A stretch of DNA of 64,000 nucleotides from contig NZ_CAXXOR010000005.1 in assembly GCF_963678845.2 (NCBI RefSeq), positions 251,567 through 315,566 on the forward strand, written 5' to 3'. The notes under the pieces were generated by a model, which did not search any database, was not told the origin of the DNA, and saw only the letters and a list, made by a program, of their open reading frames with translations. Numbering within the stretch: position 1 is the first letter of the stretch; every line of letters starts with the position of its first letter. The stretch is from an uncultured Bacteroides sp. GTDB lineage: Bacteria; Bacteroidota; Bacteroidia; Bacteroidales; Bacteroidaceae. The translations under genes were made by a program, and so were the position numbers. Positions 14,627 through 16,657 of the stretch are shown one piece after another.

Positions 14627-14820
14627 TGATTATCAGCAATATATTTATTCCGGTGGTGTAGATGGTGTACATAAATCGTTCTTTTTTCGTTCTGAAAAAT
14701 AAAATTCCGAGAATTCTGCAAATTGCGGATTTTTAAAAATTAATTTTCTGAAAGCTGAAAAAACTCTTTTTATGTACACCATCTACACCACTATCGGGCT
14801 TTCCTAGTTTAGTAAAGTAT
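14627..14820. repeat. 194-bp palindromic unit, copy 1
   Basis: Perfect 23-bp IR gtggtgtagatggtgtacataaa (14653-14675 / 14769-14791) around a 93-bp AT-rich core homologous to copy 2. Confidence 0.85.
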
Positions 14821-14963
14821 TGATTAATAAGCATGTATATTTTTATAGGTGGCAGATCCTATGTTTGCAATAAATATGCTGAAGTGAAAAAATAAGAAAC
14901 ATAAGCTAAGAGTATTTTTTATATTTGAGGTACCAAACTTAAACATTCAAATATTCAAAGCTT

Positions 14964-16043
14964 ATGCGTACACAAAGTAACAAAGTAAATTTCAATGGAG
15001 AAAATATTTATGTTGGAATTGATGTTCATCTAAAGAGTTGGGCAGTGACAATCTACACAGAACATTTGCATCATAAGACTTTTAGTCAGCCACCGGTTCC
15101 CATATTATTATGGAAATATCTGGATGAAAATTTTCCTGGTGGTAATTACTATTCTGCTTATGAAGCCGGATTCTGTGGATTTCATATTCACTTTGAACTG
15201 GAAAAGTTGAATATAAAAAATATAGTAGTCAATCCCGCTGACATACCGACCAGTCAAAAGGAACATGTGCATAAGAATGATTCTTGCGATAGCAAGAAAA
15301 TAGCCCGTTCTCTGAGAGCTAAAGAACTCACCGGAATACATATTCCATTGATTGAGACCTTAGAAAATCGTTCTTTAGTTCGTTCTCGAGAAATCTTGGT
15401 CAAGGATCTGGTTCGTTTCAAACAGCGAATAAAGTCTTTTCTTTATTTTTATGGGATAGCCTATCCTCCTGAATTTGAAAAGTCATCTTGTCATTGGTCA
15501 AAACGCTTTCTTAAATGGTTAAAAGAAATATCCCTAAATACGCAAAATGGAAATGAAGCATTATCCCTATTAATAAGAGAAGTAGAACAACAGCGCCTTC
15601 TTTTATTAGAAGTGAATAAGAAAATTCATAGCTTGGCTATTTCTGATAAATATATTAAAGAGATGGAATTAATAAGAAGTGTCCCCGGAATAGGCTTGAT
15701 TACAGGACTTACTTTTCTATTGGAAATAGAAAATATAGAGCGTTTTTCTAACACGGACAAGCTAGCCTGTTTTGTAGGAATAATACCGACTTGTCATTCG
15801 AGTGGAGAAACTAGTAATAATGGAGAAATGACCTTTAGAGGGCAAATCCATTTAAAGAAAGGTCTGATTGAAAGTGCTTGGGTTGCTTCAAGAATAGATC
15901 CAGCTCTAACACATAGCTTTATTAAGCTTTGCAAAAGAATGGAACCCAATAAGGCAATCATACGAATTGCGAGAAAGTTGTTAAACAGAATATATTATAC
16001 TCTAAAAAAGGAACATAAATACGAATATGGAATGGTTAAATAA
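14964..16043 (+). CDS. IS110-family DEDD recombinase/transposase
   Basis: YVGIDVH, AYEAG and KNDSCD give the D-E-D-D tetrad; SVPGIG HhH-like segment and PTCHSSG conserved Ser; 359 aa, no frameshift. Confidence 0.95.
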   Translation: MRTQSNKVNFNGENIYVGIDVHLKSWAVTIYTEHLHHKTFSQPPVPILLWKYLDENFPGGNYYSAYEAGFCGFHIHFELEKLNIKNIVVNPADIPTSQKEHVHKNDSCDSKKIARSLRAKELTGIHIPLIETLENRSLVRSREILVKDLVRFKQRIKSFLYFYGIAYPPEFEKSSCHWSKRFLKWLKEISLNTQNGNEALSLLIREVEQQRLLLLEVNKKIHSLAISDKYIKEMELIRSVPGIGLITGLTFLLEIENIERFSNTDKLACFVGIIPTCHSSGETSNNGEMTFRGQIHLKKGLIESAWVASRIDPALTHSFIKLCKRMEPNKAIIRIARKLLNRIYYTLKKEHKYEYGMVK

Positions 16044-16068
16044 TAATACCCATATAAAATCTGTATAA

Positions 16069-16205
16069 AGAGTGACCGCTAGCCACTTCTTGCAGCTTTG
16101 CCTGCTTTGGCAGATTGCGGCCTCTTTCCTATTGAACTGAAAAGGATTATGTAGAAACTGAAAGAATCAGTTAGAACTACTTATAGAAGGTTGTTTTATA
16201 TAGGA
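16069..16205 (+). ncRNA. Putative bridge/seekRNA core (target-binding loop 16069-16125, donor-binding loop 16126-16205)
   Basis: Two stem/internal-loop/hairpin domains whose loop segments match the reconstructed target and donor junction; transcript ends unknown. Confidence 0.75.
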
Positions 16206-16657
16206 ATTTACTAATTATTATTGAGACTAGAGAAACATGTATAATAGGTTTTTCTAGCCATATAGCGATATCTGTAACATAAAAAGAGGGGAAAATCATA
16301 CAGACTGTCCCCTCAAAATGATGTTACAGCGTAACGCAGGAAGTTTATTGCTGGCAAGTTGCTCCTCAGCAGAGCTTGTTTCCTCTTCAACTTCCTGATT
16401 ACAAAGCTAATAAAAAGTATAATAAATATTAATAATACTCTTATAATTTGGATTACAACATAGAAGCAGTGGCAGCAAAATAACACTTTTTCCGATTCTG
16501 AAAAATATATTTTGATAATTCCGCAAATTGCGGATTTTTAAAAATTTTATTTCTGGAAAGGTAAATAAGGCTTTTTTCCTGCCACTGCTACCACCTAATT
16601 AATTCAGCACAAACAAAATACCTTTGTCAAGGCAATAAAAATAAACCTTCGTTTTTA

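Follow-up and report, generated by a model that had tools for sequence, protein, structure and literature searches.

The window analysed here, a 64,000-nucleotide stretch of an uncultured Bacteroides genome (NZ_CAXXOR010000005.1, positions 251,567 to 315,566), contains two palindromic units in tandem between positions 14627 and 16597, the second of which is interrupted by an insertion sequence (IS) referred to here as ISa. These units are probably satellite-type, initiator-specific replication-origin modules, present in the window as orphan copies, with the class-B arm of the second unit having been hit by a guide-bearing IS; the probability that we assign to this reading is roughly 0.65. The initial annotation had offered three candidate identities for the units: a REP/attC-like repeat family, a structured non-coding RNA, and iteron-flanked AT-rich origins left by a primase-encoding satellite. 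The last of these was the best-fitting, as home copies of the unit are located 3' of VirE/VapE-like genes and the sequence class of the arms tracks the wing of a winged-helix domain in the encoded protein.

Re-reading of the sequence and a repeat scan bore out the two palindromes as first described. Unit 1 (genome position C5:266219) is 139 bp long (14653-14791), an imperfect palindrome of 69+69 nt centered at 14722, and its arms form a perfect 23-bp inverted repeat (14653-14675 and 14769-14791) with 93 bp between them. The left arm of unit 2 is cut by ISa into TAGGTGGCAG (14846-14855) and CAGTGGCAGCAAAA (16467-16480), and once rejoined it matches the right arm (16574-16597) at 22 of 24 positions. 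The unit centers are 1805 bp apart, which gives the proposed period of 194 bp when the 1611-bp insertion (14856-16466, one copy of the AG core counted) is subtracted. The two units are 74% identical across 91 nt and share a 24-nt core that occurs exactly twice in the 4.19-Mb genome (37% G+C, 98% complete). Both are rod-like palindromes of ~145 bp that fold with z-scores of -9 to -14 relative to shuffled sequences, the plus strand being slightly more stable than the minus. The 9-bp TGG periodicity that had been described in the arms is present as a 9-bp period, but what repeats is a pair of tandem 9-mers in each arm: GGTGTAGAT/GGTGTACAT in unit 1 and GGTGGCAGC/AGTGGCAGC in unit 2. The inner region of unit 1 is 23-27% G+C, compared with 47% in the arms. 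The unit reaches upstream to a TGATTATCA box and TATATTTA, and the repeated cassette overall begins at ~14398. The features of the cassette and of the insertion are:

14398..14433, minus strand: end of the repeated cassette, whose counterpart in the home locus immediately precedes the HU-HIG start codon and extends to it (alignment with the VapE-to-HU regions L028 and L036); paralogous loci have AACCGGAWACTAAT in common here
14434..14493, no strand: three TGTACA-type boxes (AAACATGTACAAG, two direct and one inverted), forming a 30+30 nt palindrome that is 90% complementary
14494..14626, no strand: linker or 'leader' with AAGCACTTTACAGCC, homologous among paralogous cassettes and to the home linker, and conserved in the orthologous loci of four relatives
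14627..14647, plus strand: TGATTATCA box (14627-14635) and TATATTTA (14640-14647), which precede the left arm in most units (consensus of 118 oriented units)
14653..14675, plus strand: left arm of unit 1 (class A), iterons GGTGTAGAT (14655-14663) and GGTGTACAT (14664-14672)
14676..14768, no strand: AT-rich inner region of unit 1, with the central palindrome TTCTGCAAATTGCGGA (14714-14729, center 14722) and a direct TTCTG repeat in both halves
14769..14791, minus strand: right arm of unit 1, the left-arm iterons inverted
14792..14845, plus strand: inter-unit spacer, with unit 2's own TGATTAATA box (14821-14829) and TATATTTTT (14836-14844)
14846..14855, plus strand: left arm of unit 2 (class B), outer iteron TAGGTGGCAG, with the AG core at its end
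14856..16466, plus strand: ISa, IS110 family, IS1111 group, 1611 bp including one AG core, subterminal inverted repeats CTATGTT/AACATAG
14964..16043, plus strand: ISa recombinase gene, 359 aa (Pfam DEDD_Tnp_IS110 and Transposase_20)
16070..16127, plus strand: putative loop by which the ISa bridge RNA binds its target; in the minimum free energy (MFE) fold, an internal loop closed by a stem
16467..16480, plus strand: left arm of unit 2, inner iteron CAGTGGCAGC followed by AAAA
16481..16573, no strand: AT-rich inner region of unit 2, central palindrome centered at 16527
16574..16597, minus strand: right arm of unit 2, TTTTCCTGCCACTGCTACCACCTA

The two units belong to a larger family. A profile of the inner 101 nt identified 21 units at 13 loci in this genome (labelled G000), and a covariance model returned the same set; the neighbors of all 13 loci are mostly unrelated housekeeping genes. 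A covariance-model search of 40 relatives missed true members (few candidates scored), and a pattern scan of the whole genus was used instead. Multi-copy sets were found in only ten genomes among the 250 species scanned, this one included, and no repeated copies in the remaining ~240 species. The other nine species, which form the Bacteroides luti clade, have 7-20 units each according to the covariance model; B. luti itself is the closest named relative (87% amino-acid identity in an S41 peptidase). In total 143 units were gathered from the ten genomes, of which 118 were oriented for a consensus and 69 were non-redundant and used for covariation. A one-off local duplication, the outcome that would have counted against the initial annotation, is ruled out by these numbers.

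Every arm in the family consists of two tandem GGTG-N5 9-mers, and the same two are found inverted on the opposite side. Four arm classes cover all units: A (GGTGTAGAT/GGTGTACAT), B (GGTGGCAGA type), B2 (GGTGTCAGA), and C (GGGTGGAGA). The left and right arms are of equal class in 137 of 141 units. Two units are clear chimeras that combine a class A arm with a class C arm (G241:C1:3022865 and G247:C6:413021), possibly recombinants through the conserved center. The suggestion that pairing between arms is kept while their sequence changes was upheld: in the 69 non-redundant units, 18 of the 24 pairs of the outer helix show changes to both partners, pairing holds in 91% of arm cells, and the covariation score is 0.382. 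Shuffles score 0.132 (none of 500 equals the real score), and slid controls do not exceed 0.091. When the inverted repeats change, the direct repeats inside each arm change too, and variants of a single iteron, such as GGCACAGG or GAGATGGCAG, are mirrored in both arms. The consensus unit includes the upstream TGATTATCA box and TATATTTT, a TAnnTTT-like motif 4-5 nt before the left arm, the conserved central palindrome TTCYGCAAWTTGCRGAA, and a direct TTCTG repeat in both halves, which gives the unit an orientation.

Units are frequently paired, and the order within a pair is fixed. A class A or C unit is followed by a class B or B2 unit in 39 of the 42 classifiable pairs from the ten genomes, and the remaining three are of ambiguous orientation. 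The spacing between centers is quantized at 193-195, 202-205, and 214-215 bp, values roughly one helical turn apart, and the extra 10-11 bp of the longer dimers are located between the first unit and a conserved TTTTGTAAT motif. Because this order recurs at many loci in ten species, the window pair is one instance of a fixed heterodimer, and its arm types A and B are old classes. The arms did not diverge on the spot after a local tandem duplication.

What the units belong to is indicated by the genes beside them. Inspection of neighbors, as had been recommended, revealed primase/VirE-like genes next to two units in this genome, both single units between a gene for a ~700-aa VapE-like protein (domains BT4734-like_N, VapE-like_dom, and DUF3874) and an HU-HIG gene. 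In one of these home copies (C3:728995) the VapE-like stop codon is inside the arm, and in the other (C1:920699) the unit begins 12 nt after the stop codon and is followed by ISa. VapE-like genes end at the unit, or at most 12 nt from it, in home loci, and a unit is immediately 3' of a VapE-like gene at 16 loci in 8 species. All seven of the full-length VapE-like genes in this genome are directly followed by an iteron or palindrome type of their own: a class C unit, a class B unit, and, behind the five further paralogues, five different repeat types (AGTAGCAGATAAA hairpins, AAAGTGAGGG/AGTGATGG arrays, AAAGCTACGC hairpins, GCTAGATC arrays, and a GTGACAGGTGTGCAAGG inverted repeat). Several of these VapE-linked motifs are many-fold over-represented genome-wide and form the arms of other long-spacer palindromes.

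The arm class equals the class of the last ~25 residues of the adjacent VapE-like protein in 16/16 cases from 8 species. The tails end in ..RGITQYEVILR (A), ..NGYTVYHICLKE (B), ..KGKTVYNVVIKELD (B2), and ..KGTTQYMVILKDWGGEGGEK (C), and two alignment columns hold the full 1.94 bits of class information. The ~300 residues before the tail are 87-95% identical, and a tree of these residues does not separate A from C. The VapE-like protein matches the structure of SaPI1 Rep with double-stranded DNA (PDB 7pds, E = 1.2e-10). In an AlphaFold2 model the C-terminal 160 aa form a winged helix (pLDDT confidence 83 overall and >90 in residues 80-150), and the class-specific residues fall in its wing and where its recognition helix ends. 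BT4734-like N-terminal domains are archaeo-eukaryotic primases (AEPs) fused to VirE and DUF3874 (PMC11724360). BT4734/VirE-like proteins are very common in Bacteroidota, and the DUF3874-type C-terminal domain has 1886 representatives at 50% identity (E ≤ 1e-3).

Two further observations were made at these loci. At class C home loci the unit arm itself supplies the final 8 VapE-like codons (..WGGEGGEK), so that protein end and DNA site overlap (L028:1617-1645; C3:729039-729067). Other families of long-spacer palindromes in this genome have the same plan, with a short motif in tandem and inverted around ~80-135 bp (sites include C5:1028277, C3:1090346, C3:301264, C1:1217124, and C3:78463); CCCTCACTTT has 53 matches where ~6 are expected, AAAGCTACGC has 32 where ~6 are expected, and GCTGTCCGGTAAAA has 14, the first two being repeat types found behind other VapE-like genes.

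Among the closest known systems are the pathogenicity islands of Staphylococcus aureus (SaPIs) and other phage-inducible chromosomal islands (PICIs). The SaPI Rep protein is a helicase-initiator with a C-terminal winged-helix domain that reads short iterons, and the SaPI origin is located immediately downstream of rep, with an AT-rich center flanked on either side by two or more iterons, the two sets being oppositely directed (PMC9371898). The likeness extends to a VapE-like helicase-initiator of superfamily 3 (SF3), primase-fused in some islands (Rep1 and PriRep5; PDB 7pds), to its C-terminal winged helix, to an origin directly 3' of rep with at least two opposed iterons on either side of an AT-rich center, and perhaps to a specificity that differs from island to island. 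By analogy, an origin module of the family described here would consist of two 9-bp iterons on each side, in opposite directions, around an AT-rich center of ~95 bp. The cognate proteins would be the ~700-aa VapE-like 'PriRep' fusions (BT4734-type AEP primase, SF3 helicase, and C-terminal DUF3874 winged helix), the winged helix would read the 9-mers with its beta-hairpin wing and the terminal part of the recognition helix, and the home unit would fire as an origin. The window pair would be a copy of the VapE-to-HU intergenic region that lacks the genes, in the heterodimer order A/C then B/B2 usual for the family. Its class-B left arm was later struck by ISa, the putative bridge RNA guides of which fit the class-B iteron junction. 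Binding of the 9-mers by the winged helix and firing at the home unit are steps that we infer, as would be any function of the orphan copies.

If the winged helix reads the 9-mers, then all four 9-mers of a unit would be expected to share a class, and a perfect-looking inverted repeat would result without any need for a hairpin, the arms being complementary because they present identical sites in head-to-head orientation. Reading of iterons by an initiator would explain why direct repeats change together, why the class follows the wing of the protein, and why wobble pairs are not enriched, none of which a hairpin explains. Among non-Watson-Crick cells there was no strand asymmetry between G.U and A.C (15 vs 14 positions), and an apparent excess of 92:41 in the arms vanishes when counted per position.

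The window units are not adjacent to a rep gene, and a position downstream of rep was found only for the home copies. On the minus strand, 14380-14800 of the window is collinear with the home VapE-to-HU intergenic region (alignment with L028 and L036), in the order unit, linker, three TGTACA-type boxes (14434-14493), and a stretch ending at the would-be HU start codon. The TGTACA-box module is ~45 nt upstream of the HU-HIG gene in home loci, where it is collinear with the window, and copies of it adjoin at least 7 other unit loci. Judged from this alignment, the window units are orphan, gene-less copies of the putative origin plus the promoter region of the neighboring HU gene. Orphan units are kept at orthologous sites across species. 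No VapE fragments were found within 3 kb of any GGTG-type orphan. VapE tail remnants of 22-40 codons do occur beside orphan repeats of the AGTAGCAG or AGTGATGG type (C1:403394-403513, C1:1614986-1615051, and C3:406525-406593), which points to decay of rep-ori modules as the likely source of at least these orphans. Elsewhere in the window (849-1124; C5:252415-252690) there is a weak HU-HIG match broken by one TAA stop codon, a possible HU-HIG pseudogene.

ISa has a left end of 107 nt and a right end of 421 nt, and a short left end, a long right end, and subterminal inverted repeats characterize the IS1111 group (PMC11208160). A protein identical to the ISa recombinase was found in a metagenome contig in ENA. 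There are six copies of ISa in this genome, with 99.8% identity, and five of the six occupy the same point in a class-B left arm, GGTGGC-AG-[IS]-AG-[AC][GA]GTGGC, so that the check proposed for other copies came out positive and the claim of specific targeting by an IS1111-type element held up. Targeting is further indicated by guide-like patches in the 3' end that match the site: AGCCACTTCT (16081-16090) is the complement of AGAAGTGGCT, a sequence close to that of the right half-target, and TTTGGCAGA (16106-16114) has the same sense as the left half-target. The patches face each other across the internal loop in the MFE fold, as expected of the target-binding loop of a bridge RNA, which they putatively form; no Rfam bridge-RNA model matched. 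One copy of ISa (C5:457458-460051) is itself split by a DDE_Tnp_1 (IS4/IS5-like) element at C5:458735-459610 (L033:194-1069).

A sister element, ISb, is 80% identical to ISa and is present in 13 copies, one of them at C1:737012-738590 (L279). Several are at contig ends, where they probably caused breaks in the assembly. ISb inserts at AGTAGCAG^ATAAAC, beside small GTAGCAGATAAA...TTTATCTGCTAC hairpins, and this target is of the iteron type located downstream of the VapE-like gene at C3:456544. When the right ends of ISa and ISb were aligned, exactly two patches differed, each fitting the element's own target (TAGTTTATCT and TTTAGCAGT in ISb). Elements of the IS1111 group that target repeats (IS621 in REPs, the IS1111-attC group, and IS4321/IS5075 in the inverted repeats of Tn21) resemble ISa in their DEDD recombinase, long 3' end with a bridge RNA, subterminal inverted repeats and dinucleotide core, and in using a single defined target that is itself repeated (PMC11208160). 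ISa differs in that its target is the junction of two origin iterons, and ISb, with both guide patches changed, lands in the iterons of another VapE-type origin.

Paralogous units within this genome have inner sequences that are 68-89% identical (median 74%), while units at matching loci in other species are usually mutual best matches, with 82-97% identity. The clearest case is a single-copy S41 peptidase gene, behind which the same cassette is found in four relatives. Both arms of the unit at this locus are class A in this genome and in one metagenome-assembled genome (MAG), and class C in B. luti and two other MAGs, although the flanks and inner sequence are orthologous. This switch of class with an orthologous remainder indicates that a unit's four 9-mers stay alike as its other positions drift. 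At this locus, a G/C change within class A affects one 9-mer and its mirror copy in the opposite arm. Arm classes likewise differ between orthologues at a Thr-synthase locus, and a LacI-MFS locus is polymorphic for monomer and dimer. Apparent differences in arm class between orthologues at C3:728995 and C1:920699 were dropped, as the flanks there are multi-copy VapE/HU paralogues. No clean empty site was obtained, as the two candidates consist of unalignable, too strongly diverged intergenic DNA, and one of the relatives (L180) has broken synteny. An exact-protein look-up for strain comparison returned nothing for a GH43 gene and only the same species for the transposase.

Several findings weigh against the interpretation of the units as origins. 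In this genome 19 of the 21 units have no adjacent rep gene, and class A and B2 units are present along with VapE genes of classes B and C only. The home islands are minimal, comprising the VapE gene, the unit, HU-HIG, and a KilA-N-like gene, and no integrase or packaging genes were found in them. Since the coding sequence of the tail adjoins the arm, and in class C lies partly inside it, the 16/16 match could partly reflect linkage within a swapped block. A Foldseek search had 7pds as the top match and the P4 origin-binding domain 1ka8 at rank 12, and winged-helix domains dominated the list, but the E values were 0.05 or higher. The SaPI model leaves the conserved palindrome TTCYGCAAWTTGCRGAA, the TGATTATCA box, and the fixed heterodimer unexplained. 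Finally, mirrored single-iteron variants such as GGCACAGG or GAGATGGCAG are better explained by pairing or by arm-to-arm templated correction, and because of them one or the other may act on top of reading by the protein.

Several other explanations share part of this evidence. The units could instead be sites at which the VapE winged helix, or HU-HIG, binds as a regulator or architectural protein, with home copies auto-regulating VapE or HU and orphans modulating the transcription of neighbors or the structure of the nucleoid. The co-variation of arm class and protein tail would be the same in that case, orphans are retained at orthologous sites across species, the cassette includes the boxes upstream of the HU gene, the unit and the upstream gene point the same way at 56 of 78 loci, and the central hairpin scores as terminator-like (flagged in unit 1). 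We nevertheless consider this unlikely, as inverted iteron pairs around a 75% AT center directly 3' of an SF3 helicase-primase gene are the published rule for an origin, and the 23 nt from TTTG to TAnnTTT is not the canonical spacing of a Bacteroides promoter. That spacing is reportedly 19-21, and a Bacteroides -33/-7 promoter in the upstream box was rejected on these grounds. An invertible promoter was also rejected, because the inner region is largely palindromic and inversion would change little. Rather doubtful, too, is the possibility that the units are structural repeats comparable to REP/BIME, ERIC, or Correia sequences, in which a long DNA or RNA hairpin is selected as an mRNA stabilizer, terminator, or cruciform and proximity to VapE is incidental or due to an insertion preference. 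The rod folds, the 91% pairing with 18/24 compensated pairs, and the mirrored single-iteron variants would all fit, and such intergenic repeats are known IS targets (PMC1525189, PMC11208160). Co-variation of direct repeats inside one arm is not demanded by a hairpin, though, wobble pairs are not enriched on either strand, and neither the 16/16 match of class and tail nor a separate repeat type for each VapE paralogue would be expected. The REP part of the earlier REP/attC proposal is excluded by the lack of RAYT: the Y1 transposase domain PF01797 had 0 matches in this genome while the positive controls matched. Integron attC sites are a misfit because the center is conserved and the arms are variable, the opposite of attC, and the neighbors of the units are unrelated housekeeping genes.

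Units that are multi-copy and intergenic, often flanked by TA (TAGGTGG...CCACCTA), and polymorphic for monomer and dimer at the LacI-MFS locus might also be MITEs (miniature inverted-repeat transposable elements), non-autonomous elements whose arms are the terminal inverted repeats for a transposase yet to be named and whose classes are subfamilies. This is very improbable given the age of the paralogues (median inner identity 74%), the mutual best matches between orthologues, the lack of any consistent target duplication, and the asymmetric upstream box and linker that are part of the repeat. No gene flanked by these arms was found in this genome, where the arms are confined to units, or in 400 genomes of the order, which contained only single matches at chance level. 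The least credible alternative is that every unit encodes its own structured non-coding RNA, with transcription from the TATATTTT region, as the motif before the left arm and the more stable plus strand might suggest. That candidate of the initial annotation lost favor: orientation relative to genes is mixed, there is no wobble strand asymmetry, and covariation within the direct repeats would be unexplained. A scan of Rfam 15 at E ≤ 10 yielded only sub-threshold matches to miRNA-like hairpins. The FopS multicopy small RNAs of Bacteroides were rejected as well, the sequence of FopS-10 (PMC11697453 supplement) being unrelated.

A more speculative extension of the origin reading, which we regard as improbable, is that the orphans are working sites. 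Resident VapE-like primase-helicases would load at the A/C+B heterodimers and either drive local, in-situ over-replication of neighboring chromosomal genes or replicate 'origin-only' hitchers, a domesticated partnership like that of REP and RAYT with an initiator in place of the transposase, in which iterons would switch class, as at the S41 peptidase locus, to follow the available initiators.

Comparison with known systems also brings out what is particular to these units. The iterons here are 9-mers, exactly two per side, whereas SaPIs have 5-6-mers; the center is a conserved palindrome, the primase domain is a BT4734-type AEP, and the host is Bacteroides. The home islands differ from SaPIs and PICIs in the absence of detected integrase and packaging genes, and above all most copies here are orphan, dimeric, and conserved at orthologous chromosomal sites. 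The alpha protein, ori, and crr of phage P4 offer a second parallel: a primase-helicase with a C-terminal winged-helix domain that binds the origin through short iterons, represented by 1ka8 among the fold matches. P4 has a second cluster of iterons, crr, away from the gene. The fold match to P4 is weak (E = 0.38), one crr compares with ~11 orphan loci here, and the sequence and arrangement of the iterons differ. Like the REP/REPIN-RAYT systems and BIMEs of enterobacteria and pseudomonads, the units are dispersed intergenic palindromes in classes, each class beside a presumed cognate gene; two repeat types are combined into mosaics at fixed spacing, and they are favored targets of the IS110 family. 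Unlike those systems, there is no Y1 transposase here, the units are ~145 bp, the conserved center and variable arms are the opposite of REPINs, and the protein is a primase-helicase. Correia elements of Neisseria and ERIC sequences resemble the units as intergenic imperfect palindromes of 100-150 bp with subtypes of end sequence and a conserved middle. They differ in having no linked cognate protein gene and no tandem 9-mers in the arms, and Correia elements have TA duplications and hundreds of copies.

Origins of this architecture and the targeting of repeats by IS1111 elements are both already known kinds of phenomena. The literature searched on Bacteroides palindromic repeats, MITEs, and VapE origins contained nothing relevant, and the literature searched as a whole contained no iteron origin assigned to the Bacteroides BT4734/VirE family, no DNA sites for BT4734/VirE-like proteins, no correspondence between wing and iteron class, no gene-less, heterodimeric orphan copies conserved across species, and no pair of sister bridge-RNA elements tuned to different iteron types. 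The assignment offered is that DUF3874 is a candidate origin-binding winged helix with its specificity residues in the wing, and that the 9-mer iterons are its predicted sites. Several multi-copy families of intergenic palindromes in this genome carry motifs of the repeats behind VapE-like genes. Two related RNA-guided IS1111 elements appear to have tuned their guides to two iteron types, which would let them use origin iterons as harmless sites of insertion. Should the orphan copies prove functional, this major genus of gut and environmental bacteria would possess dispersed elements of a new kind to which initiators bind.

Some minor observations concern the surroundings of the units. In the MAG Bacteroidales bin_67 (L180:5770-6070), which lacks the GGTG family, the same peptidase gene is followed by a TGATAATCA box and a palindrome with arms of tandem GCGTAGGRT 9-mers around an AT-rich ~85 bp, an analogous element with another motif. 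The TGATTATCA box is itself over-represented: the word TGATWATCA occurs 160 times in this genome, compared with 33-96 times for seven composition-matched palindromic control words, and only 7 of the 160 occurrences adjoin units, so it is a wider motif. An IS3-family element (rve and HTH_21) truncates units at two loci (C5:200038-200928, which is L277:739-1629, and C5:745411-746301), and the same IS end also abuts a unit arm in another species (G237:C1:1395921), indicating that the units have also been struck by a second, unrelated type of IS.

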